A stretch of DNA of 61,714 nt, the filler included, from Hausera hauseri (taxonomy: Eukaryota), in the NCBI GenBank assembly GCA_046269625.1. It is 11 parts of 11 records of this genome, joined end to end, with 100 filler letters (N's around TTAATTAATTAA, not from the genome) between each part and the next. Parts side by side here need not be neighbours in the genome. Positions count along the whole stretch, not along the records: positions 7,192 to 11,481 come from JBJURY010653996.1; 10 more parts are not named here. The stretch is one strand, 5' to 3'. The notes under the pieces are model-generated. The model did no database searches. It saw nothing but the letters and a program-made list of their open reading frames with translations, and was not told the origin of the DNA. The position numbers and the translations under genes were made by a program. Below are positions 6,555-58,140 of this stretch, piece after piece (position 1 is the stretch's first letter; each line of letters starts with the position of its first letter).

Positions 6555-7091
6555 ATGGACATTTTCGCGAACCAATTGTTGCCCAGCAAATTCAGGAAAG
6601 CGACGATGTGAAGAAGTACATTAAAGAATGTAATAAATTCTTTAGATATATGAACACCTCAGTGGCGAAGCGGGAAATCATGGTTGAATGCCTCTTGGAG
6701 GAAGAAGCAAAAGAAAGATACGAATCAGTAGATGCGAAGATAACGGGATATCAAAACCGACTACGAAAGACATTCACCCAACCCTCAATTCTGTGCAAAG
6801 ATCTGAAAGAAGCGCTCGAATACAGAATGAATGGAGCGAAACCGGATGCCTACTTCGAGGCAATCGAGAAACTGTTGCAAAAAGTTATGAAATACGAATT
6901 TTCATGCTAGAATCTAAAAGAGGAAATATTGTTCCAATGCTGTAACAATAGAGAGATGAGAAGAGAGATATGCCTCAGCGACAAACGAGACGCAGAAACA
7001 ATAAAGGAGAAAATACGGAAAATACATGAAGTAAATATTAAGACAGAAGAAATCAACACGGCCAAGGAGTATCCAGGGATCGGTAGAAGAA
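6555..7091 (+). pseudogene. gag: Ty3/Gypsy gag, 5' half
   Basis: Begins just after the PBS; ORFs 6608-6910 and 6929 onward in one frame split by TAG; runs into base 1 via the overlap. Confidence 0.75.
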
Positions 7092-7191: not shown

Positions 7192-7917
7192 TCCCATCAT
7201 GTTTGTTCAACAAATATCAAACGGAAATCATAATACAAGCTAAAGAATGAGGTCTGTATGTCTTGTGACAGCGAAATAACAACTAAAAGCCATGAATGTA
7301 AAATTATTTGGGAATATTGTTGTCTGTTCAGTAGTCAGGAACATGTGGATAATATTGAAAGGTATTGAGATGAAAAGAAATTATTTCATTTGGATAAGTG
7401 TTGGGCGGTTTTACATGAAACGAAATTGACGACGGTTAGGAAGAATGATAATGACAATATTAAAAGAATTTGGATGAATGACGTTATTGGTACTGTCAAA
7501 TCAAAAGTCGAAATGCCGAAATCAGTTTTGCTAACTCTTGTTCAAGAAATTAAGGCTTTGCAAGACGAAGCTAAAATAGAAAGGATTATATACGCTAATA
7601 TTAAATACCACTTAACAACTCAAGTCACTGAATCGTATTATACGAGTTTCGATGGAACCGTATTTACCGCAAATATTAGTAATGAAGAAATAAAGCCTAA
7701 TTGGTGCCGAGATTTAATTCTTCTTAAAAAGGGCACTCATTGTGGTGCCGTGAATACTGGAAAGCAGTCTGCAAAACCTGATTATAAAAATGGACGACTA
7801 GAAGCAGGCCACTACAAGACTTATCTGCATCTAAGTTGCAACGAGTACTGCAAAAGGTATTACGAAGTTATTCAAATATTAATGTTGTTTCTCGCTTTCA
7901 TTATTTTGGTTTATTGA
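7192..7917 (+). pseudogene. Orphan Cys-containing protein with C-terminal hydrophobic anchor
   Basis: ORF 7390-7917 ends VIQILMLFLAFIILVY; Cys-rich frame continues upstream through a stop; no family recognised. Confidence 0.3.
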
Positions 7918-8269
7918 ATGTCGATAGGGCTTATATAAGAAGAATGTATGATAAACTCAGTATGTATGGTATGACCTCATGGATTAAAGGTGGAGAAATT
8001 CCCCTGTGGAGGAGCACCGCGTTAACAATGGCTGAGTTTGATGAAAAAATTAAATTAGATGTTTTTTCCTATAAATATATATTGTGTAAAAAATTATATG
8101 GGCTTGAGGAGTTCGGTAAATTGGGTCTTATGGTATCTGGGATGGGTTTACAGGTATATGAGTTAGGGGGGAAATCATCAATGACACTTTAAGAATTGGT
8201 GGGAACAATGGTTTCAAGAAAAGTAAAAATTGTCCAACAGTAGATATCTCATCATATAACTTCTATAAA

Positions 8270-9200
8270 GATTCATCAGCCCAAGATACAATTTCAAGCT
8301 CTAGATCCGAATTTTGAATGGTAGATGCAAACTATGTTATCAGTATGTAGATTCGATGAGTAATATCTGCATTCTAAACAGCATTTATTTGCTTTGTTGT
8401 TAAATCTGTCGTGGTAGTAACATATGAATGACCGCGTTGGTGACGGTGTTCGGTTTCTGGAAGGAGAACGTGTTTGACGAGGCGAGAGAGCATTCCGTCG
8501 ATATAAAGAAAGGTCATTCAGTTTATTATTGGTAGTGTTGATTGTGTGTTGGAGTGCCGCATTTTCGGCACGTAATTGGTTCAGTTGGTGTTCGATGGAT
8601 GTATGACGTTGATTGTCATCGGTCGTGATAGCGGCTGATATGATGGGTTGTGATTGGATTTGTAAGACTTCGTGTGCTTTATCTGCCAATTCAGCTAGTT
8701 TATCTAAGGCTGTAGAATCTTCAACAACGGTAAGTAAAGCCCTAATTTGAATTGGTAAAGTATTAAGGAAATATCTTCGAAGTAGATCCGGATTGTGTTC
8801 CTTGGTGACGCCTAGAGTACGTAAGTGAGCCAATGAGGTGCGTAGGAGATCGCTAGGTTTTTGTGTCCCCATTGCATTTTCGTTAAAGAAGTGATGAATT
8901 AGAGTCAATTGGTGGTTCTGTCAGTTTTAACACAGCATCGAACAATTGGGTATAAGGGTCAGAGTGTTGAAAGATGTCCAGTAAGTTATGGATTGAGGCC
9001 TTTATAGAGTTTGGTAGAAAGTAGAGTAAATTATGGGCTTTGGATAACGAATCTGTGATACCGTTGGACTGTAACCAGAGTTGATAGAAGTGGAGCCAAA
9101 TTTTGCTAGACTTCTCATTGTCTATAAAATATTCGGAACAGTGTGGTGAAGTACTGATAGGATTTTAGTGAGAAGAATTTGTATCGGTTGAAGTAGGCGG
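8270..9200 (-). pseudogene. gag: Ty3/Gypsy gag (DUF7041-like type), frameshifted and 3'-truncated
   Basis: MGTQKPSDLL, FLNTLP..IR..L, LDKLAELADK, CYYHDRF...A.KC; homologous to the gag at 57139-58140. Confidence 0.8.
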
Positions 9201-9297
9201 ATTGATTGATTTGGGGTAGTAGAGAATGGATTTGGGTTTTTTGGTCACCTTATCGATGGTGTCACTGGTTGGTGGTGAAATCATACCGCCGCGGATT

Positions 9298-10080
9298 CTA
9301 GAATTGATATGTATAGTTATGTGAGGCCATGATGTGTGGGAAGTCGGTTAAAATGCAACCGTTTTGGGTCAGATAGAAATCGCTGAATACGGAGGTATTA
9401 TGAATGATAACGCATAGTTGTGATGTCTCGATACGTTGTCTGACATGTACTATTTGTATTAGCTTATTATTGACATAAAGATAGAGGGGACATGATGGTA
9501 ATGTACTGTAAACCGGGTTGTGTGATATATCGATGTGATCATTCGAAGTTAAGAAAGTTGCTTTGAACGTTTCTTTTGAAGAATATGTCCGATCTGTGGA
9601 CTCACTATGGTTAGTGGATCTATTGCTTTTATAAGTGATGCACGCTGAAAGTTGACAATAACTAAAATTATACGGATTCTGTTTACAGTCAGAAACTCTA
9701 GTCAGGTACTCGCTGTCATCAGAAGAAGAAATCAGGCTGACTTTGCGATAATGTGCCTTGATTCCACGCCGTCTCATTGCAGATATATTAATCTCTGTAG
9801 ATTCATCAGTGTCGGATATTGTAGGTTTGGCAAGGTATTCAGTGATTGCTGTCTCGTTTTTGCATTGTAATATGCAACATAGTATATGCGGCTATAGTAA
9901 TGAACGATAAGATAGCAAACTTTTATAAGGTGAATGGACAGGAAAGGTTTTTATGAAAAGAAAACTTTAAGTAAATGAATCTTAAGTAACGAAAGTAACA
10001 GTGGGCTGTGGGAAAGGGTGAAGTTGTGCCAACAGCGAACATGTTAAAAATAAAAACTTATGAGAAAAACGGAAAAAGGG
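9298..10080 (-). pseudogene. Unknown Cys-containing region after a hydrophobic stretch (possible ectodomain)
   Basis: Follows the module shared with 55060-55480; ORF 9298-9777. Confidence 0.25.
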
Positions 10081-10660
10081 AATGATTAACAAGAAAAATA
10101 AAAAATGATTGCTTGACGAATAGAGCTTAATAACAAATCCCACCTCGTCGTGTACTGGTCTCTACATGATTGGCAGTATCGTTTTCCGCTAGGGCACAGC
10201 AGATCGGCTTCTTTACGTCGTGTCGTTCTACGGGCGGTCTGTATGTACCACCACTCTTTGAACGAACCAACAAGTTCGTTATATATTGTCTGTTTGTCAT
10301 TGCATCTTGTACGCTTGCCGTAGTTTGACATAATCATTCTGCTTGTTCCACTCTGCAGTCTAGTAAGGATAACATCGCCAGTCGACAGCAGCTGTTGTTG
10401 ATGTTTTATATGTTGTTTCATCTGTGGTAATGCCAGCGGTCCCTTATTACATATTTTAATTGCAATTAAATCATTCAACGATTCTGCATTGTGACTTAGT
10501 CGATTCTGAAACGACGGATAGCTCTCAGATGGATCAAACTCCACGTAGGATTTAAATAAGGTCTGTGGGGAATAGTTTTTTAATGATGGTGACTTGTGTT
10601 TGGTATCGGTATGTTCTCTATGATTGTTAAGTGACTTAGTGATGTCCTTCAGTAGATCCT
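10060..10660 (-). pseudogene. Degenerate integrase C-terminal-like module shared with 54950-55480
   Basis: DPSESYPSFQNRLSH..YIQTARRTTRRKEADL matches DPSKRYPSFQNRLSH..YIQTAHKTT*RKEIDP; LLKDITKSLNN..T..KSP and LSTGDVILTR resemble IN core-end and SH3-region motifs. Confidence 0.5.
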
Positions 10661-10684
10661 TCGATTATTTCTGTAGTGTAATAG

Positions 10685-10900
10685 AAGGTATTTCCAACGG
10701 TGTCGTTCCAGTTGCGTCAGCAACATTTGTATCGGTGTCAGCAGTCAACACTAAATTGACAACTTGCTAATTCGGAAACTGATAAATGAGAAATCGAGCG
10801 GTCTGACCGATTTCTTTCGAACGAGTTAGATGAAGTAACGTTTGGCCGGTGTAACGTCGAGGATCAAGTTGGACTAATCGGAAAATCTGAATACGAAATC
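10685..10900 (-). pseudogene. fem1: FEM1-family C-terminal ankyrin fragment (within ORF 10767-11285)
   Basis: QIFRLVQLDPRRYTGQTLLHL...FPN*QVVNLVL..DTDTNVADATGTTPL fits the FEM1A/B/C C-terminus; no intron. Confidence 0.7.
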
Positions 10901-11481
10901 GGGAGTCCATTTCTTTAGAAAGCAGCGACAAAAGATTCAGTGACCCTCCGGTATAATGATCAATGAACATAGACATAAATGTTAGAGAGAGAGATGTTTG
11001 TTTGAATAACTTAAATGCGTCTTTGTCTGCATTGGTGTATGACCAGTACTGTTTGTTACGCCATCTATAATAACTGAATTCGATTCCTCTTTTAATATTC
11101 AATAATTCGTCAGATGTTGAAAGCTTGGTAACGTCGTCCAGTGCTTCTTTGGCACGTTTCAAAAGGAGTTCGTAATTTTCAAGTGGGAAATTTTTCCAAT
11201 TTGGATTACGGCGATAGAATGAATCGAAAGTGACTTCAAGATAGAAATTTAAAAGTTCTAATTCGTTTGTGTTTGAAACCTCCATTTTTGTATCAAAAGG
11301 GGATATCTACTTTGGTTTATCATCCAGATTATACGCTTTGTACGTATCACCATCACCAATCACATTCCGTTTCCACATTATGCAGTGAAACATCCGATGT
11401 ACTGAGGCATTTCAACAACGGCCTTTTTCAGTGGATATCTTTTGTACAATTCTAACGGGTATCGCTAGGATTCTTTAGTTT

Positions 11482-13739: not shown

Positions 13740-16250
13740 GACCAAAATATTGAGGTCTAAAATCCGAAGACGATTGATCCTTCAGCCACACAAACTTGCC
13801 GAACTATAAATTGTTCGGAATGTACGATTTGTTATTGTTAACGAGACGGCAGAACGAGTCTGAGCTGACCTTGAAGACGTGAGAGTGTGCCGCACGATTG
13901 TTTTTGTGTGACGGATTGTCGTCGAGGTCGTAAAGTTAAATAGAATCCGTATTGAAGTCCCAAAAACGGCCTCGGATGGAGCACAACCGGTAGTGGTTGA
14001 GGGTGTGCGCGCCACCTTGGTAGATCAAATGGTAGAATGGACGTCCATTTACGATGATTGTCAGCCAAGATTTTTAAAGAAATTTTCTTTGTTCGATGGA
14101 ACCTTTCAAGGAGGTCATTCGCTTTAGGCCTGCAAGAAGCACGATCCATCATGGTAAGAATATGTTGATGCTCGTTGTCAGAAGGTAAGGGGCCAACGAG
14201 ATAAAGATGACTTATATGAAAACGTGATGTACATGGGAAATGGTAAAGTGGCGGTTTAAGTTGTTTACTGATTTTGTATTTCTGACAGGCTACGCATTTT
14301 TTAACCCATCCTTGTACATCCTTGCTCATTGATGGCCAAACTACATGAGGATGAAGCAGGCGACAGTTGCTTTTGAACTAGGATGATTGAGTGAATGTGT
14401 ATGAAGGAAAGCTGGCTTTTGTGAAGGTGGAGTTAGAATGATCTTTTTATTACCGAAGGTCGACGTATCATGCAATGCCATCAATGATATCAAAGGATTT
14501 GAAGGAGCTAAGGAGGTCGGCAGATGTTGATTGGGTTTTAAGACTTCTGATGAGAAAATTGACTCAACTGTAATGGAGCCAACCGACCTCGACAGAAAAT
14601 TTGGGACTAAATTATCTGTACCTGAAATGTATTCTAAAACAAAACTGAATGTAGATATGTATGATATATGTCATTCTTGCCTCGGTGATGGCTGTTTTGA
14701 CGAGATTATATGTAGGAGAGGCTTGTGGTCGGCTTGAATAACGAATGGACGAGAAAAGTAGGTGTTTGAATTGTTTTACTGCCAGAACTATGGCGAGTAA
14801 CTTACGTCCAAATGTAGAGTAACGGCTTTCGGGTTGTGAGTTTTCGGGAGTAAAATTCTAATGGTTCGTCGATGCCGTTAGAAATCTAGTGTAGAACCGC
14901 ACGGATGGCTGTGGTAGAGGCATCGGTGGTAAGTATAAAGTCTGCATTGGGCTTTGGATAGGCCAATATTTCGACCGTTTTTAGGCCTTCACCAAAGTGA
15001 TCAAATTTGGTAACTAAATCAGGAGTCCAGTGGATCAACTGCCTATTTTTTCCAGATGATAGATGTGCTAAAGGTGCTGTAAACTCAGAATAATGTCGTA
15101 CGTATTTGTGGATAAAGTGGAATGTGCCTAAGAAACTCCTCATATCCGTAGTAGTTGTTGGAAGTGTTGTCTTTCAATTGCTGTAATCGATCCGGTTGTG
15201 GAGTGGCCGTGGAGTGATGATGTGGCCTACGAAATTGACGTTTTTGAAAAAAATGATCCTTGGAGAAATTGGCTTGTAAATTTCTGTGATGTAGTCTTTG
15301 AAATGTAATACGGAGGTGTTCTTGATTTTGTTTAACCGAGGTGGAGGCAACTAATATGTCATCAACGTATGGATGAGCAAAGTCCAGGCTTGAGAGAACG
15401 GTATCAATGTGTCGTTGAAAAGTTTGGGAAGCGCTACGTAAGCCAAATGTCATAAAGATGTACTCATAGAGACCAAATGGAGTAATAACAGCAGTTTTTG
15501 GAATGCCATCAGGTGCAACCTGAATTTGATGGTAAGCTTTATGCAAATCAATTGTAGAATACGTATTAGTATTGGTTAGATTGTGCTGGATGTCCTTTAT
15601 GAGAGGTAAAGGGTAAGCATCTAGAGATACTAGGTTGTTGAACTGCCAGTAGTCACCACATGGTCTGTAAGTGCCATCTTTGCTACTACATGTAATGGTG
15701 AAACCCATGGTGATTTTGATCTTCCAATAATAGCGGACGTTTCGAGTTCATTGAACTCTAATTCAATGGCTTTTCGTCTACGAGGTGACAGTGGTCTGAA
15801 CTTTTGTCTGATAGGTCTTTGGTGTTCTGTGACTATGTGGTGATAAGTTGTAGAAGGCGGCTTGAAACTGACGCCCTTTTTGAGGTTGCGGAAGAAGGAT
15901 GTTGTGATATAAGATTTAAGACTGGAGTCCAGCGATAAGAAAGAAGGGGGCATATTATTGGAAGAGTCAGTGGCTGTAATTGACGTGGAATGATTGAACA
16001 CGCCATTAATAACATTCGGTTCAACCGATTGTTTAAAATTGACTTGCTCTCGCTTGATGTAATTGAAAATATGGATAAATTGTTGAACGTATTGTTATCG
16101 GCGGAAGAACAGCATGTTAAATTCACATGTGAATGAAAAGGAAGGCAAGAAAGTGTCCGACTGTTTGACTGTCGGGCCTTTATTGATATCTACAACGGGG
16201 TTTCTGCGCAAGAGACATCCGTGCTTACAGTCGACTAAGAAATCATGAGC
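13740..16250 (-). pseudogene. pol: Ty3/Gypsy pol (PR end-RT-RNaseH-IN), disrupted
   Basis: SPWVSPLHVV, YRPCGDY, YPLP, DLHKAYHQI, KTAVITPFGLYEY, FGLRSASQTFQR, YVDDILVAS, LTTDAS, CVACQ, LLERFHRT. Confidence 0.92.
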
Positions 16251-16451
16251 AATTCTCGTATTCCGCTCCATCACTTCATCTTCAGCGAACACCGACACGA
16301 TCCCATCCGCCAACAACCTGCGAAATTGGTTCCCAAGATTTGTCACCCGTTCCAATTCATCCGTATATATTTTCCGATCCTGCTCTATTCTATGCTGCGC
16401 CACCAAATTATAGAGCTCGAAAAGTTTCATGGCATACATTCGATTAGCCAT
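16251..16451 (-). CDS. Unassigned host-like exon joined in frame to the pol remnant
   Basis: Pyrimidine tract and AG acceptor at 16452-16453, then 67 codons unlike pol, then HDFLVD. Confidence 0.3.
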
Positions 16452-16830: not shown

Positions 16831-17493
16831 TCAATTAACGTGTATATGTTTTTCTGATTCCATCGAAGTTGAGACGATGATTTCATTCATCCCAGCACCG
16901 CCACCGATTACCATTTCGAAAAGGCTTTCAAATGGGCCCGAGCTAAGAAATTCCCGAAATACAGCATTTGGGTCTTTATCGACTATTGGCAAAGCACTTC
17001 GCACCAATAACTTCTGACGATGTTTTCTTCCATTGCAATGCTGCTTTGGGATTTCGGCATTGTTGAACACGGATCCACATAAATAACATCGATCATCGTC
17101 CATTTTGTCTGATTCATTTACCACAAGCCTTCCACCAATGCGAGCAATTCGATTGTAAATGTTACAGTACAGATTGTCCAATTTTTTAAGTGATCTGGTC
17201 GCAATTTTGGATCAAAATACCAAACATCTTCATCACCGAAAAATCCCATCCGTCGTTTGTTTCTTACCACTGTAATGAGCAATACAGATATTCAATGAAT
17301 TTAGCGATGTCAAGCAATATGCAAAATATGACTGTCGATGCAACACTCGTAAATTTGAAGGAATTCGAACGTAATCATCTAATTCTTCAATAATGCCATC
17401 AAAAGAGGCTTTAGATTTACGACTAAAACTCATAATTGTTAAAGCGAAATCTGTAAAAAAATGTAACAAAGCAGAATTTTCAAGTTTGTCCAA
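16831..17493 (-). pseudogene. Matrin/U1-type C2H2 zinc-finger protein (ZMAT/ZNF385-like), disrupted
   Basis: CYLCGSVFNNAEIPKQHCNGRKH plus a damaged finger YCLTSLNSLNICIAHYSGKK; frameshifts between them. Confidence 0.65.
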
Positions 17494-17793
17494 AATTTAT
17501 TGTTTATTAAAACTGTTTATTTTTTGATAACATAAGACGCCTATATTTAAGTGCGCAAGTACCACAAATACAACGACGAGAAATAGAAATTACTAATATT
17601 ATGTATAAATGTGAGTATAAAGTAACATGGAAAACATACGCAATGAAGAAACAATACTGAACTAAATATGACAACAACGACAAAGTGCATCAGTCCAATA
17701 GAATAAACGTGCATTTGTTTTCTAAGAGGAAATTTTCTTTTCAATCGTTACAGATTATCAAATGAGATCGCAGTGTCCACAAAAATCCCATTT

Positions 17794-18688
17794 CTAGTGA
17801 CGCTTGCGATTGGACATTTCTTCAGCTTGGTGTTCATCATCATTACAAATCTTGTCATCGTCCATTTTACAATGTTCCGAACATTCATCAGTATCGTGAT
17901 TATTCCCAGTCCCATCTGCGTCCTTTGATTTATCGGTGGATCTACCCAATCCATTGGGTTTACGACTCTTCGACATTTCAAATTAGATCTTCAAAAGGAA
18001 TGAATGGGTCTCTGATACCGTCAAGCAATACCGATACTCTAAAATATGTTAGAAAAGCAGAGCTGCTAAAAACAATTGACTCGATCCAATAGGGATCTTT
18101 TGCAATTTTTCCATTAAAAGCATGATTGCGACTGCCAAACTTCCTTTAACGTTATAGCTGGGTGAAGGTAGAAAATTGTTAACACTCGTCACAACACCCA
18201 TACACGCTTGTGAGAATGGAATCATTGCATCTTCTACGGTACCTTTCGCCAGGCCAATTAATAACCAAACAAGAGTTGAGTTGGAGTATTTTTCTTTTTT
18301 ATTGTCACCCTGAATCCGATATGCACATTTCTTGCCCGATAAAGTTCTTTCACCAAACTCAAACAAATCATTCGCAAAAAGGATACAATTTTGAATACAA
18401 TGTCAAAAGGAAAATAATTGACTAGGTACCAAGAAAATGTCGCATGGATGACATTTTGATGACAAGTGCTTCACCGACCAACAAATTTAATGACACCAAA
18501 CCTGCAAAACACGACAATATCGTTGCAAACCAACTAGCAAGAGGATGTTGTCAGGAAAATGCTTTATTCCCCGGAGCAATCTGTCATACGTTGTAACTTA
18601 TTAACAAATAATGGCATACATTTATATAAGGGCATAATTCGATTGTGTCTGAAATTAACGCTAAAGTTGTTAGAAATTTTCCATCCAT
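17794..18688 (-). pseudogene. TMEM38: TRIC cation channel (TMEM38) pseudogene, no introns seen
   Basis: AFS*QHPLASWFATILSCFAG..LLVGE, WYLVNYFPFDIVFKI, KELYRAR, IGLAKG, PSYNVK, DPFIPFE; two TGA stops at Arg positions plus frameshifts. Confidence 0.85.
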
Positions 18689-18948
18689 TTTTGCATTAAG
18701 ATCTAACTATATTGTTGTAAATCGCTAATCGAGTGTGCAAAATGTGTTAAAAGTACGGCGTACGTAGCAGTACACGTATTCAGTCACTTGTTCACACGAC
18801 GACTTTGAATGTTTCACTGATTGCAGAACAGTCCGAATTTGATAATTGCGTCAGGAAAAAACAAATTAATCTGAACAGATTCATACGAGAAAATTTAGAT
18901 AGCAAAGTCCATTTTAATGAAGATTTAACAATTGTCTAAACTTTAGCA

Positions 18949-19103
18949 TGTTGCATTCGGAGGTAGAGAAAATAATGACGAGTGAGTGAGGTGAAACAGG
19001 TGTAAGTTGGAAAGCACGCTTATGGGCCCAACGCTGCGGAAACAAACGCCCGGCCGTCCCCGACCAAATGGGCCAATGGGAACCGGCCGCTGTGGGCACC
19101 ACA
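18949..19103 (-). mobile_element. Probable short 3' LTR of the C4 Gypsy element
   Basis: TGTGG...GCAACA on the minus strand just after the PPT; only one copy visible. Confidence 0.5.
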
Positions 19104-19107
19104 TCAA

Positions 19108-19120
19108 CCCTCGCCTCCCC
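19108..19120 (-). promoter_or_regulatory. Polypurine tract
   Basis: ggggaggcgaggg on the minus strand after the integrase tail; equivalent to 51829-51841. Confidence 0.65.
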
Positions 19121-19194
19121 GCGTGGGAAAGCGAAAACCATAAAGATCAAAATGCACGGAAAGAAAAAATCGCTAAATGAAAAGTGTCTGTGTA

Positions 19195-23682: not shown

Positions 23683-25262
23683 AAATTTACCAGGTCAAAC
23701 CCATGGTGCCCTATTTCCACTTCAGACACAAAATACAACTGCAAAGTTTTAGGTTTCTACCTCATCATTTAGAGGTCGCTCCAGTTTGTACCTTTTTGCA
23801 CCATGAATATTTCATTTTGATGATTCACATTTATTTTGACTAATACAACAGATATAATTATCGACATTATAGTGTAGTAATAACATATGTATTAGAAACA
23901 ACAGCGTTTAGTATCCCACATAAATGATATTCGGTGAAAGCGTCCTTTGAACCGCAAGTAATGTCCTTCTGATGTTGTCGCACAACAGTCAGAATATACT
24001 GCTTCTGTTTCTCGTACTGTGGTAAGATCGAGTTCAATTATGTTCCGAGAGAGATTGCTTTTTTGGCACAATCATTGATGACTGTCATCCTATCACAGAA
24101 TGTCTTGAACCGTATGTAGGTAGGGTCTTCATTCCAGTCTTCAGGTTTCTTGTGCAAAAACGATCAGCCAGCACTACACCATCTGGGAAAAGCGGTGCAA
24201 AAATTCTCATGGTCTTTGATGTTACAAATTCATTTGGTGACCGCCGAGAACAAAAATTCTTTCCATCGAGTCTCTTAATACCTTTTTTCTTTGGAGGTTT
24301 CTGCAGGTTCTGTACCATGGCATTTTTCAATGTGACATCGATCCTTTCATCGAAAAAAGCTAAACCGACTAACTCCTCTGACATGTACCACAGGTGCCGC
24401 TTCCAAGCTGTTAATGTTGTCTCTTTAAGGCTTCGCTCCGATAAACCGTTCTGAAGACGGCACATAAAGAAGCATATTTAACTATCATAGCTTCATTCCA
24501 CTACCTAACATAGACGAGAGCCACAAACAGGCCGCCACTGCGCATTGTATGCTTCTCTATGACAGTCATTTGAAACTGATCCTTGAAGAGATATATCTTT
24601 AGAGCATAGATTGCTTTGGTCATCCATATGGCTTGATGGAACTCATTAGGCGTTCGGGTCATGACAGAACCATCTGAAACTTCTGCCAATGATAGGAAAG
24701 CTAGTTGAAGTTCGGTGTGATCTTTTCTGGGATGGGGTTTCTGTTGCAACGCGGACTTCAGATAGTTGACTGCTGATGTATTCATCTCTGCTAGGTCACC
24801 ATTTTCCAAGAATCGTTGCGCAAGATCTTCATCCTCAGTGACGCCAGACCATTGGGATTTGTCATTTAGTTTTTAGCTCTCGTGAAAGCGAACAGTGAGC
24901 TGAACATTTGATCCTGTACATGTACCATAAGCCTCAGCGAAAGCGTTACTCAAGGCGATTTCATAAACATGATACTATAAATAGACTGGGTGTGAGTGGC
25001 TAATGTTTGCTGCAGCAGCAGCAGCAGTGAGCAATGTAGTGACGCGTGCTTGGTGGCCTGCATAGTGCAACAGTACAATAGGACACATTACATGTTATTT
25101 CAGTACGACTTGCAATTGTTTACAAAGGCTGAAATTTGGAGCGACCTCTAAATATTATCCAATGGTCTTCAAATTTTTAGTGTTTGCTTACTTTGTTAAT
25201 TGTAATAAGGGCATCATGTGTCTAATTCAGTGAAATTTTATTAGTAACTGTGGACCACCCTA
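23683..25262 (-). mobile_element. hATm-like DNA transposon, internally deleted, probably inside a SELENOO intron
   Basis: Transposase motifs HQAIWMTKAIYALK, HLWYMSEELVGLAFFD, NDCAK; imperfect ~100-bp TIRs with core tttagaggtcgctcca (23768 and 25137); right end ...GGACCACCCTA. Confidence 0.75.
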
Positions 25263-25273
25263 ATATTATATAT

Positions 25274-27843
25274 TAGGGTGGTCCTTGACCATATGCTGAA
25301 TCTCAAAGTTTGCATTATCAATGTTTTCACCTCTCAATATTTTGCATATATATGCAAGTGATTAGCGTGCAAAATTATTTAGTGAAATCTTCATATTTAG
25401 AGGTGGCTCAAGACGTCTGAGTTTTGCATTAGTATGGAATTGAACAACATGCATTTGTTACAGCGTATTTATTTATTACAAACGTTGCAGCATACAGTCA
25501 TCTTACTTTCTAGATAGATATAGGTCACGTTTAGAATAGGTTAGTCAGCATCGTCCATTTCACACTGAACTAGTGCCTGTTTTCGACAATCCGGAAACAA
25601 TTTTCTGTTCCTGGACAACCTGAAGCAAGTACTGTTTCTGGCTTTCTTGGTCATGAGGCTGTTGCATTCATCAATAAGGGCTACAGCTCTCTCTACGATT
25701 TCATTCACTACTTCGAGTCTTTCAATATCCTTAGTCCATATTGATAATCACTTCTTTGATGCCACATAGCAGGATCAGACTAAACAAAATCCATTGAAAT
25801 GTTTAAGTACTGGAAAAACGTCTGCGTGTTTTTAGTGACAAAGTTCGCAATTGTCAATTTATGGTTGCTCCTTTATATGCAATTTACGCCGTTTTGGATT
25901 TGAATCTGACCCTTCGGTCTGAAGCAGTGCTTTTACCATTTCACTCTGTTCACTGGGATGTCTGCATCAAAGAATGATATCCCAACGAGTTTTTCACTAA
26001 GATACCATAGATGCTTACAAAACTTGTTGACAGCTGCTGCAGCTACGACTGCATTTTGTTTGTGGTAATCATCAAGAGACTACAAGATGATCGAATTATT
26101 AATAGGAGCAGAAATTATAACTGGAGCTGTAAACCAGGCTCTAACATATTCGGAAGAAGAAGATGCAAATGTTGTATAATGCACTTTTTCCATGAACGGT
26201 CAACTTGAACCGTTCCTTGAACACCCATATTTTAAATGCATATAGCGCTTTTCCTATCCATCTCGCATGATGAACAGCACCAGGACATGAAAAACGAACA
26301 CCTGTGGGTGGCACATCACCAGCAAAAATGATAGTTAATTCTAGTAGCTCTCTAGTAGACTCTAACCTGACGAAATTCTAGCTGACGTTTAGCGGAAGTT
26401 ATTATGGCATCTCTGCAGTCTCACTGATTCAGCGTCACAACTGTCATATTTAGTCTTGTCGAAAGACCTCTGTTTTCTAAATCGCTTAAAATTGCAATAT
26501 CTGTATCACTTGATGGTTCCACAAACTTGCAGCTTTGGATAACAGATGTTAACATAATTTCTATAATGTGGTGGCGTCAAGGCAAATACAACAGCTGCCT
26601 GTTTAACTTTTGCTCCAACAAAACACATGCCCCACCATACTTACTAGTATTAACTGGCTGTTGTATCGAAGGACATCGCCCAGACTTTGTCAGTTGAATT
26701 CTATTCCTGTAAAAGATGTGCAACTGCCTCAGCTTGGGCTTCACTGATACCAGCTTTTAAATTCGGAGCACCAATTAACTTATGAACATCTGCATCTGGA
26801 ATTATTACTGGAAGACGCTCAACCTTGTCATATCCAGCTATATCGCTTAGTAGCTTTCCATTTTAGTGCACAGGTAGGGGAACTGATGGCTGAAACTGAT
26901 TTTTCAATGAGTTCGCTACTAGAGTACAAATTTGCTCTCGAGCACGTTTGATAGTCGAGCGATTGATGAAATATTTTGCTGCGCCATGATCCAGTGTTTT
27001 AGCAGCTGCAGTCAAAATAAAAAGTGCTTGGCGATCAGAGACTTTTGATCTATCAAGGGCTGCTGCCAAGCCAGAAGTGATAACAGCTTTAATTGCTCTT
27101 CTTTTCCTTCGCTTTACTGCATTCGATTCTGTAATGCTGTTATCACTGTCAGCGGTATCAGCACTAGACTTCTCAGTACTTATTTCACTGTCTGATGCAC
27201 CGCCAAATTGGAATCATGACTTAGCTAAACTTGTTGACACTCTCTTTTATCGTAGTTCCTTTTCAGATCTAATTGACGTTTCTTAAGATTTTCAGCTCTC
27301 TTTTCTTTAACAGCCAGTATATTGTCAACCTTACCAATGCAGGTTCGTCGGCCTGTCTCTCTTTGAGCATTTAGAAATTCCTTATCTTCTTGAATCTTTA
27401 GCATATTCATATCGTCCATATGTGCTATATCAAACAAATTATCTAGATTTTTCATGAAACGAGCTTCTTTACTCTCTGGTTATCAGTTCTTCTTTTTGCA
27501 TTCTTCTTCTTTAAAAGTTTCCATCGCTGGTACAAATTTTCTAGCTGTTGAACGCAATGATGTTTGGGACGAATCGGAATTCTTGCTTTTCCCGAAATTC
27601 TATTACTTCTTGTACAACAATCCTTGCACTTTCATGAACTGTCTGATGGACAGTATTATGTTAATACATGAAGCGAGAAAATGTTTGTCTGATTGAAGGT
27701 AACCTGCACCCTACAAGTTCATTCTCTTCTTGGCCTACCAAGCATGACAGTTCAACTCCTTGTACATTTTGATGTTTTGGCCATTGCTAATCTGATAAAC
27801 TCATAAAATGTATTCACTTCACTGTGTGTAAGCAACAGAAAGG
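25274..27843 (-). mobile_element. Second hATm-like transposon, truncated by the contig end
   Basis: TAGGGTGGTCC terminus; NLDNLFDIAH, EDKEFL..QR, AAALDRSKVSDR, SFDTT, RHHI, HHARW, HLWYLSE, NEIVERAV motifs across frames. Confidence 0.8.
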
Positions 27844-31400: not shown

Positions 31401-31990
31401 TTTCTTTACTTGCCGTATTACGAATCCGCAAATGGATCTTTCCATCCCTTACTTTATCTATGTGAGGGGCGATTAAAATATCATACTTCTCCATCACTTG
31501 TGGGAATGGTTCAAAGTAAATGACCTTCGATAATGCTTGACTTTCTATTTTTCCGGGTACTATTACCTCGGATCGCGGTGGAATTGTAATATCTTTCATT
31601 AATGAAACCACTCTTCTGTCTTCTCCGAAAGTCTTCAGTTGACATGTTCTCAAATTTATATAAACATTTTTTAATTGGTTCACTACATCACATCCAATTA
31701 AGATCTCGTTAGTCAGATTATCGGCTATCCTTATAGTGTGTTCTACAATCTGTTCACCAATCTTAATTTTGGCATCTAAGACCATCTTAATTTCTTCTGT
31801 ACCGAATGCTCTTACGTTCACTAAGGTAGTTATCGGTTTTCGTAATTTCCTCTTTAACTCTTTCGGCAATTGGCTCCTTTCCATTATCGTTGTTGTAGAT
31901 TTAGTGTCTAGTAAAGCCGTCATTGGGTATCCATTAATCTCTATCTCTATTTCTGGCCTTATAGATGATTGTTGTTCATTTTTATCATCA
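28496..31990 (-). pseudogene. pol: Ty3/Gypsy pol (PR-RT-RNaseH-IN), disrupted
   Basis: ALLDTKS protease, SPWTAPVVMV, FCIDYRALN, DLQKGYWQV, FNRMPFGL, YIDD, TDASYYGIGAVLSQ, YTDHRPL, MDITGPLP, IKIGDLVML..YKGTYKV. Confidence 0.93.
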
Positions 31991-50009: not shown

Positions 50010-50126
50010 AAAGAAATAAATCGTTAAATTTTGGTTTAACTCTGTTTTGCCGTTTTTCTTATATTACTCTCCTATGGAATTATTAGAAATTGTCATATAT
50101 TCAAGCGAATTACAATGGTGTCAGAA
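50010..50126 (+). repeat. LTR-end-like direct repeat plus tRNA-Leu-type PBS (second copy 50457-50570)
   Basis: About 93 bp nearly identical to 50457-50549; followed by ..TACAA TGGTGTCAGAA (50116-50126). Confidence 0.65.
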
Positions 50127-50169
50127 TAAAACTTCTGAGAATGTATTCGCCCATTATCGAATAGCTGAG

Positions 50170-50400
50170 AATTTATTCAACAATTTGGCTGTTCTTTATG
50201 GAAAACAGAAAAAGTTTCAAGAAGCTGAAACACTTTGCAAAAGATCTCTTGATCCGTGAGCAACTTTTGGGACCTGATCACCCAGATGTTGCCAAACAAC
50301 TGAATAACTTGGTTTTTCCTTGTCAGAATCAGTGTAAATACTCAGAAGTGAAGAACTATTATCATCGGGCGATCGAAATTTATTCTAATTCGTTTGGTAA
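50170..50400 (+). pseudogene. KLC: Kinesin light chain TPR fragment
   Basis: NNLAVLYGK..EAETLCKRSL / IREQLLGPDHPDVAKQLNNL..CQNQ.KY.EV..YY.RAIEIY; one frameshift; no intron. Confidence 0.88.
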
Positions 50401-50560
50401 AGAATCAGATAATCAGTTTTCTTTTGATTTTAATCATTACAAAACAATCCATTTAAAAAGAAATAAATCGTTAAATTTTGGTTTAACTCTGTTTTGTCTT
50501 ATTCTTATATTACTCTCCTATGGAATTATTAGAAATTGTCATATATTCACATGAACAACA

Positions 50561-51726
50561 ATGGATGTAGGCTTCGAATCCATACATACAGATATCGTCG
50601 GTCCTCTTCCTCTTGACAACGGTCATCACTTCATTTTGACCATGATGGATCGCGCCTCACATTGGCCAGAAGCTGTCCCTTTACGAAGCACTAACACGGA
50701 TACTATAGCCGAAGTTTTCATCCGCATTTGGATCAGCAGGTTCGGATCTCCTAGATTTATCATGTCGGACCAAGGCCACCAATTCCAGTCCAATCTATTC
50801 AAATCACTTGTTAGCAAATTAGGAATCCATCATATACACACTACGCCTTATCATCCACAATCAAATGGTCTTATTGAGAGGTTCCACAGAACACTGAATA
50901 CTTCGCTAAAGATCCTCGCTAAATCCAACAGTAGTTGGACTGTTCTTCTTCCTTTGGTTTTGCTTGGTTGGCGGAACACTCCATCTACTTCCACAGGATG
51001 CTCACCTACCCAAGCATTATTTGGAACACCTGTTCGCTCCTTGTTCGAGTTAACCGCACTAGATAATACGCCTACAGATGAAAAGATTAAAGTAGCACAG
51101 GACCATTTCATTGAAGTCAGTAAAGACTCATTTTGTAGAATACTACACAATTATAAAACATATTTACCTGACGACTTGTATTCTGCACAGTTCGTTTGGC
51201 TGCGTAATCAAACACCGTGTGGCTTTCAACCGCAGTATCTCGGGCCTTATAAGCTAGTTCAACTATTTTCTCACAACGCTATAATCCTTAAAGATGGAAA
51301 AGAACTAACAGTCCATATAAATAATGTGAAACCTGCCTTTTTGTGGATGACACCTCTCCAACTGAAACTTCGACGAATTTTCTGACTCCTAGATTTCCTT
51401 CTGTTTCTACTCCTGACTCTACTCCTACTACATTTTCTCCGGTTCCTGATTCTGTTCACACATTCACTCCACCTACTATTCCTACCCCTACCACTCCTTC
51501 ATTTTCTCCTCCCACCTTCTTACCAACAACTACTTTTCCTTCTCCGAGTTTGTTTCAGCAAGACACCACATTTAACGCGACAGATTGTAATATCTTCCCT
51601 TCCAAAGAATTTCAGCAAACGGAGACTAAAGAAAAGAGATTGCACAAAACTGTCACTTTCAGCAAGTACAGTAAGGAGAGAAACATCGAAGGCATACAAC
51701 GCCTGGTAAACACCAAAACCGAATAG
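50561..51726 (+). pseudogene. pol: Ty3/Gypsy integrase core with S/P/T-rich tail
   Basis: DIVGPLP, WPEAVPL, SDQG, TTPYHPQSNGLIERFHRT, YLGPY; frameshift into the tail; homologous to 19195-20840. Confidence 0.92.
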
Positions 51727-51828
51727 TAAAACCACAAATCTGTCACATAAGACCACATAGTCAGTTCAAACTATTTCATTCTACGTTCGCTTACTATCTC
51801 TTTTATCTTTACAGTCACACCTCGCCAC

Positions 51829-51841
51829 GGGGGAGGGGGGG
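51829..51841 (+). promoter_or_regulatory. Polypurine tract
   Basis: gggggaggggggg downstream of the integrase tail. Confidence 0.7.
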
Positions 51842-52009
51842 TAATTTTATGATCAACGAAATTATGGTTCCGTTTTTATTTCATTTTTTGTGTTAAGTGT
51901 AATTACAATTTTATCGTGACTTCTTTTCCATCTGCTGACGAATTGTTGTGTTTTGGTGTTTTATTTTGTCGTGCAGTGCTCCTCGTCGGGACTACAATCA
52001 TTTAAAACG

Positions 52010-52185
52010 AATCAACATTTTACCGAAAAGAAAATATTTATTGAATTTTACCAAAGTAAAAATTTTAGGAATTTTCCTCAGTGTTCTACCAAAACAGATA
52101 TATACATCGAACTTTGATGTCGACATGAATCAACGTTCTACCGAAAAGAAAATATTTATCGAATTTTACCAAAGAAAAATTTTCT
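52010..52185 (+). repeat. Short direct duplication (about 56 bp, period about 118 bp)
   Basis: atcaac..taccgaaaagaaaatatttat.gaattttaccaaag at about 52011 and 52129. Confidence 0.75.
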
Positions 52186-52342
52186 AAACTGTACAGAAAT
52201 ATATATCGTGTATATGGAGTAATGATTTTATGGACAATTGATTTTTGTTATGATATTTGAATTTGTAGTGTTTAGAAGATATTAAATCTCGTTATCCCAT
52301 CTTTTGTTGTACATTTTGGATATAATAACCAAAAAACTACAT

Positions 52343-52352
52343 TGGTGTCAGA
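52343..52352 (+). promoter_or_regulatory. PBS-like TGGTGTCAGA after an ...ACTACA LTR-like end
   Basis: Complementary to the tRNA-Leu(CAA) 3' end; ATG follows at 52382. Confidence 0.55.
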
Positions 52353-52539
52353 GAATTTCCTACAATTTTGTCAGAACCAACATGCTTAACAGAAGTTGCA
52401 GTAAAGAAACCACAGTAGCTCCATTTAATAGATATCAGTTTTTAAAGATCATGTCAAAAATTAATTTTATTTCTGATGTTGAAAATATAAATATTCGTTT
52501 TAAAGCCATGCTTCCTAATAGAATACTCTTATTGACAGA

Positions 52540-53514
52540 CACTGAATTTAACGAATTACGACAAATTATTACTAATCCGGATACAAATAAACCGAAAAAA
52601 TTTGGGGATATTGAAAATTCCTAAATTAGCAGAAACACTGGAGATTTTGGCAAACGAACCGTATGCAATAAAAATGGATCTTTGATTCAAACGGTCGTCG
52701 ATGAAATCCGTAATGCCAGTGGTATCTTAACAGTAGGAGACTTTGAAAAGTATGAAACAATTTGGCGAAAACCTGCGGAAGTTGGATTAATAGATAATGA
52801 TGTTTTATATACTTTGCCACCTCCATCAAGTGGAATTTTAGTTGGGCTGATACTCAATATTTTAGCAGAATATTCATTTGATTCTAGTTTCGTCCATGAT
52901 TGTAAAAAAGCCGGTTTATTTTACCATCGTTTGGTTGAAATTCGTTTACGGACAAAGATCAGCTCTAGGAGATATGGATTGCGTAAACATCACTAAAATA
53001 ATGGCAGATCTCACATCGGACAAATTTGCCCAGTGGATAAAATCTAAAATATCAGACGATAAAGTCCATCCAGTGAAATACTATGATCCACAGTTTGAGG
53101 TGAAGAAGATCAGGGAACCTCTCACTTCAGTCTTATTTCTCCTGACTGTGATGCAGTCTCCGCAACATCTTCAATTAACTACTTATTTGGTTCATTGGTA
53201 ATGGGATCGAAAACCGGAATTTTGTACAATGATAAAATGGATGATTTTTCTACACCGAACGTATCCCATGTTTACAAATTACCCCCATCGTCAGCTAATT
53301 TTATCCGACCGTATAAACGTCCAATGTCACCGATGAGTCCTAGAATTATCGCGGATAAGAATGGAGATGTAAAAGTCGTTGTTGGTGCCGCTGGAGGTAG
53401 CAAAATACTATCGAGTACAGCACAGGTTGCGGCCTTGTCTACTGTATTAAATTTATCAATTAAACAGTCCATTGATTCACCCAGAATAAGTCATCAATTA
53501 CTTCCCAATGTTGT
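52540..53514 (+). pseudogene. GGT: Gamma-glutamyl transpeptidase fragment (large subunit end plus small subunit)
   Basis: LRQIITNPDT..GD, LAETLEILA, PPPSSG, YHRLVE, GILYNDKMDDFS, NFIRPYKRPMS, GAAGGSKI, PRISHQLLPN; frameshifts; no intron. Confidence 0.92.
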
Positions 53515-53516
53515 CA

Positions 53517-54425
53517 TACTTCCCAATGAATCGGGAGTGGTTTTGTCCCTCGAAAGTGATTCCGATGACTATCTAATATTAGAAATGGCGGGCAGATTAC
53601 TCCGCAGTATGTACAATTGGGGAAGTTGTTACAAGAGAAAAGTTTCCGAAGGTAGTTTCATAAACGACGGATGGTGGCATTTCGTTTCTGTCGTTCGGCA
53701 ATTATCGGATTCACATTCATTTGCGTTTCGAGTCGATGGTCATCCCGACGGATCAAGAGCTCATTTACCTGTAGACATTGGAGGTGTGAATTTCAATTAT
53801 TTTGGAAATATGTATCTAGGTGAATACAAAGAAAATGAAACGATTATGACTCTTGACAAAGAAAAACCAAAATCAGTTGAAGGTTTTGATGAATGCATAT
53901 CATCATTTTTGGTAACCAATATTCTCACTGAAAATGAATCAGTGGAATACAAAGATTTTCTCAAACTAGTCACTGCAAAATATTATATATATTGCTCTGA
54001 AGATATGTACAATCAAGAAAATCAGTGCAGCAATGAAGACTGCTATTTTCAAGGAACTAGTATTCAACAGTGGAAAAAAATGCAATTCGATTGTTCAATG
54101 ACGTCTTTTACCGGTAACCGATGTCAAGATGTGTCTTCAACTGTACAGTTTATGAAATATCCCAGTTATTTTATCTTGAAGTACACATACAACATTAGTT
54201 ATTCAATTATTAAAATTGTATAGGGATTTCAAACAAACTCAGTGAAAATATCTAAACTAATCGTTCTCAACGACGAAGCAGCAAAAGAATTTCTCGAAAT
54301 TGGGATATACATTCAAATTAGAGCCAGTTTCATTCAACTGAACCGTAACACGGCGGATAAAACATATTATTTGTTAAAAAATCGAATAAATGTCGTCGAT
54401 GGATTTTACCATATTGCGAGATGTT
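53517..54425 (+). pseudogene. NRXN: Neurexin fragment (LNS-EGF-LNS)
   Basis: DYLILE, INDGWWHFVSVVR, MYLG; EGF C..QG..IQQW....DCSMTSFTG..C.D; GFQT, DGFYHIAR. Confidence 0.85.
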
Positions 54426-54640
54426 ACAGAAAGAAGAGTGTTATTGTTCTTTATCTGAGTAATGGGACGTTACAAATAAACACTTTCAACGATCACACAA
54501 AACTTGTATTATGTCCATGTTTGTCCGCCATTACATACATTGACGGTACCAAAACTTTTAGGACAATCCGAACGGATTATCTGCGAATTTCGGGAAAAAC
54601 TTTCGAAATGCATCAGAGATTGGAGTATTGCTTGAAGATT
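54422..54640 (+). pseudogene. PLK1: Polo-like kinase polo box 2 fragment
   Basis: SVIVLYLSNGTLQINTFNDHTKLVLCP..SAITYID..FRT..RLEY. Confidence 0.88.
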
Positions 54641-54649
54641 ATCTCACTC

Positions 54650-56029
54650 ACAATTCAAAAGGAATATCTATCTCATCTAAAAATTGATGGTGGTGCCAAA
54701 CAAAGTATGTGGAAAAATGAAACTAAAATTGATGAGTTACGTATAGAAATATTGAATATATACTCTTGGGTATACATTAAACATGATAGTTATCGTTGTC
54801 GGTTTAGTGAAATAGTGCATGAAATGAATAGTGATTGTATTATCCCAAAGTACTGGTTGTCACTCAAAATAGAAACCACCCCGTATATCGAAGAACGATT
54901 AACCGACTCACTTTTTACCGATTATCAATTTTCTGACAATCACATTACTGCCAACAGTTCTTTTAACGATAGAATTGAACCAGCTGGTAGATAGATACGA
55001 AGCCTCAAAGATAAGACTTATTATGTCTGTGCTAATTGTGTAGAGTTCCGAAAAATCGATTTGGACCCATCAAAGAGATACCCATCGTTTCAGAATCGAC
55101 TCAGTCATCACGCGGAAACGTCAAATCATTTAATTGCAACCAAAATGTTCGATTATAGACGTCTGTCAAACGGCGCCAAGCTGACAAGTTCCGATGAGAA
55201 TCAGACAACATATTACAAACTGACGGGTTCGTCCCCAAAGTCGTTGTATATTCAGACCGCTCACAAGACAACTTGACGCAAAGAAATCGATCCGCAGTCT
55301 CCATAACGCAACATGATACCACCGATCAGGGAGAAACCTGTAAACGATGAGGTTAGATTCACCATTATACATTGTTCAGTCAGCGAATATTTTTATACAT
55401 TTTTTATTCATGATATTTACCCATTTTTCTCCTACTTTGTCCATTATATAGGTAACACAACATCGCCTTCCTTTGGTTTTGTAAGTAGGGAAATATCTGA
55501 ATCTTGCTTACATAGTCGCAACAACAGTTTTTGACTTGATGTATATTCATATATGCGTTTAGCCCATACCATTCGTTGTAAGATATTCAACTACGTGTTC
55601 ACGACTTTTCTTAGATCATTTTTTAAAACTATATTCCAGTCTCTAGATTTCGTTGAAAATAAAACGATTAACGATTACAGTACACCTATAACAATGTATC
55701 TACTGTTGGCCATTTGTAAAGATCAAGGCGTCAGTGAAAAACTATATTTTCTATGTGGATTCACATCCAAATCTCCATCTACCATTGGTAATATTCGAAT
55801 GCTAACGGAACAGACTATAAACTTCTTTAACTATCCCGTAAAAGCCAGAAATTCAGTTGTAATAAATAGTCACATACAAATTATACTTGATAATAGTAAT
55901 CACTTGAATAGTACGCAATTTATGGAAATATTCATTTATTCTTTACGAGATTTTGTGGATAATAGGATAAACATTATGTCATGGGGAAAATTGGATTATG
56001 CTGAGATGGTATTCATCATTTTATATTGA
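54650..56029 (+). pseudogene. Degenerate integrase-like module plus hydrophobic segment and unknown downstream protein
   Basis: SFNDRIEPAGR*IRSLK weakly resembles NGxxERxNRxIK; 55060-55480 is homologous to 10060-10545; same frame as the upstream mosaic. Confidence 0.45.
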
Positions 56030-56669
56030 CTACGTGGCATTTCTGTTCTATGTGGCCGTAGATGTAAAATTAGTACAGGATCACACATCATGCGCAGACG
56101 TCATGTGCATCTACCTTGCCTATAAACGAGGGATTTAGTAAGATCGAACATTATTGCAGTGTTGAGAAGAATAGTCCGTTTGAAGTACGGAATGCTTTAC
56201 TCTATCCGATGCCCGATCATACTCCATTGTACAATACGACCATACATATAAACCTTTTTTCTGCATGATGATCAATTGGAAGGAAATATTCTACATTTCT
56301 AGCATCGGTAAAAACAATTTGCGAGCTTGTATGTTTAATAGTAAAGTTACAAACGGACGAAAATAATCAACCAGAAATTATCGTCTTTTCTCGTTGATTG
56401 TCAAACCCAGTATGACGGATATAAACGAGGTTTTGTTGGAGTAGTGAATAATAGAACTGTTTCGATTATAAATCTCCATGTGACGCTGTTAAGTATCAAA
56501 CACGAATTTCCGAATTGGCGATTTATGACCATTCAAACTTTTCTGCGTTTTTCCCACAAGGAATTACCTGAAACACAAAACTTACGGTGCGCCGTTATTT
56601 ATTTGATAATTTTCCAACTTATGCCCTTTTCGAATCATAATTTAACAACATTGGTCGTTTTCTGTCAGG

Positions 56670-57138: not shown

Positions 57139-58140
57139 CTAGTTTTTTGAAGGATTTGGAGAAAGGAAAGAAGAGGAAGAAAAAGGAGGAGATTTATCTT
57201 TGTAGTATTTACAACCAGGCACACATGACCTGGCCTGTGACTGATATTTGTTGTAGTATATGAAAATATGGTTGTTCACAGCGTATCGCTTGCTACAGAA
57301 TCGACAGCCCAAGAAGCATTTCCTTGCATTCTTTCGAAATCGCGTGTGATAGAAGTACGTCATACGTCCACCAGATGAAATGGATCGAGTAGCGTGTCTT
57401 GAAATGCTTCGCTCCCTTGGAAGTCTGGTGTTACTTTGTCGAGGCCCATCTAGATTGTTTAGTTGGGTGGTAATTGCTGAAACTGACTGCTGTAACGTGT
57501 CAAATTGTTGTTGCATCATTTTCAGTTGTTGAGCGAAAGACGTGGCGTCTATATTTTTCGTATGTGTGGTTGCAGCTGCAATTTGGAGAGAATTATTGGT
57601 GTGGAGAATCTCAAAGGATCTGTCAGTCATTATGGCCAGTTTTTTGATAGCAGTGGACTCGTCGACAACGGTGAGAAAGGTTTTGATTGAGATAGGCAAA
57701 GAAGACAAAAAATAACGGCGAATTAAATCCGCGTTATTTGTAGGGGTTACTCCTAAAGCACTAAGCTGCAGAATGGCCGTTTGGAGGAAATAGGATGGCT
57801 TTTGGTTTCCTATCACATGATCGTTAAAGTATTTTCGTATGATGTGATCTATCGAGGGATCTATGATATGGAGTACAGCCTCACAGAGTGTTTCGTAGGG
57901 TGTCGATGATTGGAGCAATTCGGAGATGTTACTGATTTGCTGTTGACGTTGGCAGGCAGAAGAATCGAAAGACTATTGGCTCGCGCAAAAGAGTCGGTGA
58001 TGTTGTTGGATTTAAGCAACTGTTGGTGGAATTGGAGTCACAGTTTGCTGGAATTGTTTTTATCTAGAAAAAATCCATATAGGGTAGATTTAGCAAAGCT
58101 CGTGTTTGTTGACAATTTGGTAGACGATAAATATTGTATG
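57139..58140 (-). pseudogene. gag: Ty3/Gypsy gag (DUF7041-like type)
   Basis: GNQKPS, FLSSLP, two YH..F/Y...A..C..GC motifs; homologous to 8270-9200. Confidence 0.82.
57142..57148 (-). promoter_or_regulatory. -1 ribosomal frameshift slippery site A AAA AAC
   Basis: In gag phase directly before TAG; the -1 frame is the protease frame; downstream stem-loop possible. Confidence 0.7.

Follow-up and report, generated by a model that had tools for sequence, protein, structure and literature searches.

A Ty3/gypsy family in the genome of Hausera hauseri seems, and here our confidence is modest, to carry a long chimeric extra ORF between its PBS and gag, with swappable 5' cargo from host genes and an older shared core. 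The window analyzed here is a stretch of 61,714 nucleotides made up of 11 contigs of 4 to 7 kb with N-linkers between them, and the family lies in parts on contigs 2, 3, 4, 10, and 11. Neurexin, Fem1, and PLK1 mark the window as animal DNA. On contigs 3, 4, and 10, RT, RNase H, and integrase followed one another collinearly (matches to RVT_1, RT_RNaseH, Integrase_H2C2, and rve). A polypurine tract (PPT) was located after pol (51826 and 19125), and a PBS motif after the LTR end (50116 and 52343). Two genes, at 8279-9284 on contig 2 and 57214-58073 on contig 11, shared 40% identity and are likely gag-like; the label was given from position, without Pfam support, since the gene on contig 11 runs into the start of pol as seen on contig 4, to which the end of contig 11 is similar. 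The layout that we infer, LTR-PBS-chimeric ORF-gag-pol-PPT-LTR in units that stand head to tail and have an LTR in common, joins the views offered by contigs 10 and 2. No single contig holds PBS, cargo, and gag, as contig 10 ends before gag and contig 2 before the PBS. Partial host coding sequence on the sense strand, flanked by LTR-element sequence, was present; no LTR pair enclosing cargo was aligned, and the contigs are shorter than the element.

The remainder of the window held further mobile sequences. Frames at 47892-48741 and 24026-27213 resembled what we take to be decayed DNA transposases, the one on contig 9 presumably piggyBac-like. Bases 1-77 of contig 1 were identical to 7015-7091, indicating another gypsy element assembled in tandem or as a circle, and a tandem array with copies about 75 to 79% alike occupied 42665-43369 of contig 8. 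On contig 3, a 118-codon frame (16095-16451, minus strand) was joined to the start of the family's pol remnant and is possibly another captured piece; its best PDB match had an E value of only 0.94. Several long extra ORFs were found 3' of the integrase of another gypsy element on contig 7 (34009-37402, minus strand), one of them with a weak fibronectin-III-like match and a hydrophobic C-terminal stretch. Contig 6 carried a Monjiviricetes-type fusion glycoprotein (31988-33420, minus strand; PF24664, E 4e-36) 5' of a gypsy protease/RT region; according to PMC6431247, planarian Burro elements have an env-like region in front of the protease.

Contig 10 gives the view from the 5' side. Its features, all on the plus strand, were as follows.

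50010..50126, plus strand: LTR-end-like sequence with the PBS motif at 50116; 109 nt are repeated at 50457-50564, 93% identical
50143..50400, plus strand: captured TPR fragment directly 3' of the PBS, presumably from kinesin light chain
50555..51385, plus strand: Ty3/gypsy integrase with a GPY/F-type motif, the element's real integrase
51826..51841, plus strand: PPT, in a region homologous to the post-integrase region of contig 4 (19106-19125, minus strand)
51845..52341, plus strand: inferred LTR of about 500 nt with internal direct repeats, between PPT and PBS
52343..52352, plus strand: PBS motif of 10 bases, as in the tRNA-Leu PBS of Steamer-type gypsy elements
52382..53527, plus strand: ATG at 52382, then a GGT fragment (Pfam positions 179-461), truncated and with internal frameshifts
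53528..54181, plus strand: neurexin-1-alpha LamG and EGF fragment, in frame with GGT
54413..54655, plus strand: PLK1 Polo box 2, in frame
54656..55052, plus strand: coding segment Y, common to several diverged copies in the run X1
55053..55470, plus strand: copy B of the shared block (blastn, tblastx)
55471..56668, plus strand: open segments Z (to 56029) and E (56345 to the contig end), in which the same frame continues

The order is thus integrase, PPT, about 500 nt, LTR end and PBS, ATG, cargo, and block, with the ATG of the chain 39 nt after the start of the PBS. The 10-base motif, which PMC8905726 gives as the tRNA-Leu PBS of Steamer elements, occurred twice in the window (at 50116 and 52343) against 0.08 occurrences expected, and both times it was preceded by ACA plus one base and followed directly by cargo. 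A single frame runs from the ATG through GGT, neurexin, the Polo box, Y, the block, Z, and E, and contained 13 stops in 1190 codons, compared to 65 and 100 in the other two frames and 83.5 expected; Z by itself is a stop-free run with P 6e-5. The first-pass annotation had placed the block in frame with a GGT-neurexin-Polo box fusion. The frame and all three host identities held, but about 130 codons separate the Polo box from the block, and the fusion has stops of its own. The neurexin piece corresponds to residues 871-1071 of neurexin-1-alpha. The GGT piece makes an internal excursion into another frame; its Pfam coordinates are continuous, and no gap of intron size interrupts it. Such gaps were also absent from the neurexin, Polo, and Fem1 pieces. 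The GGT piece is unlikely to be an active enzyme: it is truncated, and 7 of the 32 positions that do not vary among five bacterial GGTs are changed in it. It differed at 8 to 12 conserved sites; when each bacterial GGT was set aside and scored in the same way, four differed at 3 to 5 sites and the fifth at 13. It also differed at about 31 of 75 residues shared by E. coli and Pseudomonas (scored by eye), where human GGT1 differed at 27 of 75. Since this is close to the figure for human GGT1, the low number of stops may simply mean that capture was recent.

The view from the gag side comes from contig 2, where the same block stands beside different cargo.

10540..11306, minus strand: Fem1 fragment, C-terminal half, with two stops, cut about 44 residues before the end of Fem1
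10010..10553, minus strand: copy A of the shared block (tblastx and frame comparison)
9298..9891, minus strand: stop-free frame W of 197 codons, ending 13 nt before the likely gag ATG
8279..9284, minus strand: gag-like gene, homologous to 57214-58073, with no Pfam match

Here Fem1 is followed by the block, W, a stop, 13 nt, and an ATG in frame with the gag homology, one stop lying between this likely gag ATG and the homology itself. The earlier claim that the block is in frame with a FEM1 ankyrin fragment was confirmed over the frame 11306-10086, and both of its internal stops fall in the Fem1 part. An altered genetic code was rejected: TAA, TAG, and TGA are all present, and where the Fem1 ankyrin repeat has its stop, a relative has leucine. 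The Fem1 piece had weak PDB matches to human FEM1B/C and 57 to 62% identity to two Fem1-type proteins. Residues 22-71 and 70-200 of the frame matched residues 222-271 and 381-511 of one of these, an in-frame internal deletion of about 110 residues, and the match to the other ended at residue 201 of 245, where the block begins. W, for which nothing was found in the atlas, is unlikely to be open by chance over its 197 codons (P 6e-6) and occupies the place where a 5' LTR would be expected; the interval from block to gag contained no significant or recognizable PPT, LTR, or PBS. In the present copy the join between block and W is out of frame. Beyond the truncated gag, two overlapping open frames on the opposite strand (7369-8192, plus) had low depth in X1 and gave nothing above the cut-off in Pfam.

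The presence of one block in both contigs, already proposed in the first-pass annotation, was borne out by blastn and tblastx, with a longer extent than first given (about 10010-10553 and 55053-55470). Two blastn alignments paired 10453-10541 with 55058-55146 (79% identity, E 9e-14) and 10136-10330 with 55164-55359 (71% identity, E 8e-21), and tblastx between the copies gave a combined E of 2e-24. In copy A, 105 nt are inserted in frame at about 10347-10451, and its last third has two frameshifts relative to copy B. The dN/dS values of the three ungapped parts were 0.18, 0.60, and 0.23. The pooled value, a check suggested earlier and made here on two copies and 110 codons, was 0.34 (pS 0.52, pN 0.25; Fisher P 2e-5). 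This substitution pattern indicates that the block evolved as protein-coding sequence, and the protein-level constraint together with a dS of about 0.9 between the copies makes it old. Other parts of the first description have to be given up. Because copy A is frameshifted twice relative to copy B, the supposed hydrophobic segment in the frame 11285-10086 is a non-homologous reading of a tail stretch that is 45 to 52% T. The block is also not a constant 3' module, since what follows it differs between the copies: the open frames at 9298-9891 (W) and 55535-56029 (in Z) are unrelated to each other, so that the block is internal rather than terminal.

A retroelement context with variable captured host cassettes stands as first proposed, with Fem1 in one contig and GGT-neurexin-Polo in the other beside one block, and the frames of the junctions in the window exceeded the one-third expected by chance. 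Where both sides were fixed by homology (GGT-neurexin, neurexin-Polo, the Fem1 deletion, and Fem1-block), 4 of 4 junctions were in frame (P 0.012), and adding the junctions fixed by stop depletion gave 9 of 11 (P 0.0014), in a set that is small and was partly noticed for being in frame. The two out-of-frame cases were block-W on contig 2 and the join of MMS19 to the pre-gag frame on contig 11. A TRIC-zinc finger junction was left out of the count, although in frame, because the zinc-finger identity is weak.

Further copies were sought in X1, a public run in which 45% of the words sampled from contig 2 were present; it may be the source sample. GGT-neurexin (52521-54254) lay on one 1735-nt contig with 10 differences and the block on many diverged contigs, so the block is repeated and the contig 10 cargo is not, in line with the first-pass annotation. 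X1 contigs bridged the Fem1-block junction (10326-10658, 0 differences) and the Polo-Y junction (54225-54743), and a diverged copy bridged Y-block (54854-55145, 40 differences). Summed depth, which is no copy number, along contig 10 was 8.5 to 13 from 52605 to 54723, 54 to 65 in Y, 123 to 166 in the block, and 44 to 258 beyond it; along contig 2 it was about 40 to 85 in Fem1, 108 to 148 in most of the block, 170 to 830 in W, and in the thousands in gag. This gradient was matched by the number of contigs at the listed variant sites, which on contig 2 was 2 to 6 per site in Fem1, 6 to 9 in the block, 4 to 23 in W, and 39 to 72 in gag; among the sites listed for contig 10, those in the block were carried by 5 to 20 contigs. 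Two X1 contigs matched the block and then ran 5' into sequence resembling the contig 2 junction. These patterns would fit a cargo replaced stepwise from the PBS side. Among the variants listed (40 of 181 and 40 of 640), other copies differed at three of the stop codons of the two chains, and indels occurred at both frameshifts of copy A, so that these particular breaks look private to the present two copies.

Contigs 4 and 11 add two further cases.

16831..19125, minus strand: chain on contig 4 of PPT, about 400 nt, TRIC channel, and further stop-depleted segments, without the shared block
58730-61714, minus strand: MMS19 copy on contig 11 (PF14500, E 5e-14) with frameshifts

On contig 4, TRIC coding sequence begins from its N-terminus about 410 nt after the PPT, and the frame of the chain had 16 stops compared to 24 and 44 in the other frames. 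The PPT regions of contigs 4 and 10 were homologous (0 of 300 shuffles), and on both contigs host coding sequence lies within 400 to 550 nt of the PPT on the element's strand. A candidate PBS on contig 4 had 4 mismatches, which is chance level (about 10 such matches expected), and an 8-base PBS-like match at 18498 was rejected because it sits inside the TRIC coding sequence. The inferred LTR pieces of contigs 10 and 4 aligned neither to each other nor upstream of gag, and the LTR limits are therefore based on motifs only. On contig 11, MMS19 showed two apparent short GT-AG introns, one of them open in frame, and ended about 450 to 650 nt upstream of gag with an out-of-frame join; for these two reasons an ordinary insertion beside a gene fits this case better.

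As to the identity of the block, we think it most likely that it is either an early captured fragment or the original accessory ORF of the gypsy family. It had no match in Pfam or the PDB, no homologue in a 5.8-billion word search covering lengths 105-336, no real relative in a HMMER search of 1.84 billion protein representatives, and no counterpart in metagenome and viral contig scans; its AlphaFold model had a pLDDT of 37. The sole HMMER match, to a bacterial-type repeat protein, was rejected since its score was summed from six weak stretches. DUF8422 (PF28514) is a weak lead: the ORF 10089-10664 reached an atlas feature score of 0.97 for it with a recognition of 1462, below the 2300 mark, Pfam found no DUF8422 match in this ORF, and no paper naming DUF8422 was found. 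The end of contig 10 was considered as a second copy of the last third of the block and rejected, as the protein similarity (0 of 500 shuffles) was in a non-homologous frame and the DNA similarity (19 of 300) was not significant. The first-pass annotation had read the block as the heavily diverged C-terminus of an integrase with a hydrophobic segment after it; to this reading, with the segment taken as transmembrane or signal, we now give hardly any credence. In one of 14 comparisons, copy B did align weakly (3 of 300 shuffles) with an integrase-end/signal-like stretch of contig 7, but copy A failed the same comparison (179 of 300). The block had no rve, GPY/F, or SH3 match, the five integrase C-termini in the window have a GPY/F-type motif and gave an hhalign probability of 0.1% against it, the T-rich hydrophobic tail is read in different frames in the two copies, and the real integrase of contig 10 lies 3.7 kb upstream.

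The layout itself could be read in another way, which we regard as rather unlikely: separate non-autonomous LTR elements, each of PBS, cargo, block, and its own PPT and LTR, would have been mobilized in trans and would stand in tandem with gag-pol copies, the block being the conserved end of their internal region. Such elements are described in PMC5131818, and the unit 50116-51841 is itself an element with cargo that has undergone deletion. Inside the block, at 10152, there is a purine-rich, PPT-like run, and weak LTR-end/PBS-like text occurs about 200 nt upstream of the gag homology on contigs 2 and 11, on contig 2 near a 3.4-fold rise in summed X1 depth. However, the PPT-like site of the block was not homologous to the real PPT regions (29 to 80 of 300 shuffles, compared to 0 of 300 between those regions), the stretches that would have to serve as LTRs are open frames (W, P 6e-6; Z, P 6e-5), and a scan allowing 4 mismatches found no PBS before gag. 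It is possible that a highly diverged PPT lies 3' of the block.

That the chimeric frames are independent of gypsy, as host chimeric retrogenes or Helitron or Pack-type cargo merely nested among gypsy copies, is improbable. The apparent introns in the contig 11 MMS19 would agree with it, as would the abundance of nested elements in short contigs of the kind found in this window, but in two places cargo starts no more than about 40 nt from an LTR-end/PBS motif, the host pieces are on the element's sense strand in all 4 contigs with named pieces (2, 4, 10, and 11), and contigs 2, 4, and 10 showed no convincing terminal inverted repeat, only short weak ones. Assembly chimeras, or two ordinary host paralogues, appear more improbable still. 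In their favor, the assembly is fragmented, and X1 has only 45% of the sampled contig 2 words and is perhaps the source sample; against this, four junctions are bridged by X1 contigs (Fem1-block, GGT-neurexin, Polo-Y, and Y-block, the last in a diverged copy), and no relative of the block beyond the one spurious repeat match was found in the 1.84 billion representatives.

In the extra ORF ahead of gag, pieces of host mRNA would have been added or exchanged when reverse transcription changed templates; PMC5131818 proposes such switches, between the RNA of the element and mRNA packaged with it, for LTR-mediated retrocopies. New cargo would enter near the 5' end, and older gag-proximal pieces would be common to more copies. 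Gag would then be reached by reinitiation at the ATG 13 nt after the stop of the chimeric ORF, and PMC10275272 reports reinitiation after an upstream ORF in the non-LTR element SART1. A capture that breaks the frame would bring an early stop, by which gag translation would be lost in cis and the RNA would be expected to undergo nonsense-mediated decay. In-frame captures would be favored because ribosomes must cross the whole ORF and then reinitiate at the gag ATG. We favor selection on the element RNA as the cause of the in-frame excess, which needs selection of some kind, and the constraint on the block reveals some selection at the protein level too. The captured pieces would lose their host functions, and both copies are now decaying. 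In a wider form, which we consider possible but doubtful, the ORF between PBS and gag is a standing cargo slot that keeps swapping host mRNA pieces, its frame held by translational coupling to gag, and gives rise to thousand-residue multi-gene fusions genome-wide with the old constrained core kept.

LTR gene capture, multi-gene chimeras such as maize Bs1, extra ORFs, and tandems with a shared LTR are known already, and what is seen here is likely capture of a familiar sort, though unusually extensive and orderly. As in the LTR-mediated retroposition and chimeric retrocopies of Tan et al. 2016 (PMC5131818), partial host coding pieces in sense orientation, from more than one parent gene, lie in an LTR element and spread with it. 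Those retrocopies, as described there, replace part of gag-pol and involve one or two genes, whereas here at least three named genes plus unnamed pieces share one frame of about 1200 codons or more, which starts just after the PBS and has an old shared core with changing 5' cargo. Maize Bs1 is likewise an LTR element with a hybrid ORF made from segments of three host genes (PMC13317346, PMC7264820); in these accounts it is one chimera in a plant, in contrast to an animal family whose related copies have different chains around a core and a gag-like gene after it. Extra coding capacity up- or downstream of gag-pol is also reported for other gypsy elements (PMC7264820, PMC5408684), with host-like domains including ankyrin repeats in Burro elements (PMC6431247). 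As described in these sources, such additional ORFs are mostly constant within a family and lie between pol and the 3' LTR or in the polyprotein, unlike the variable mosaic of broken fragments found here. Two internal regions with one LTR between them, as on contigs 10 and 4, resemble the complex elements of Sabot and Schulman 2007 (PMC1950507), which are described there from cereals and without host cargo. The literature searched, with subscription journals and supplements outside its scope, reported no variable multi-gene ORF between PBS and gag.

Most known cases of LTR-mediated capture are single accidents in which gag-pol is replaced. Should the layout with separate non-autonomous elements be right, the present case would be one more, rather rich, example of a known process. 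If the cargo ORF does stand ahead of gag, the family would offer a repeatable natural system in which selection on element RNA filters exon shuffling, and would supply fusion proteins ready-made; annotation of the H. hauseri genome would then be expected to contain false multi-domain gene models (GGT-LamG-Polo, Fem1-like).
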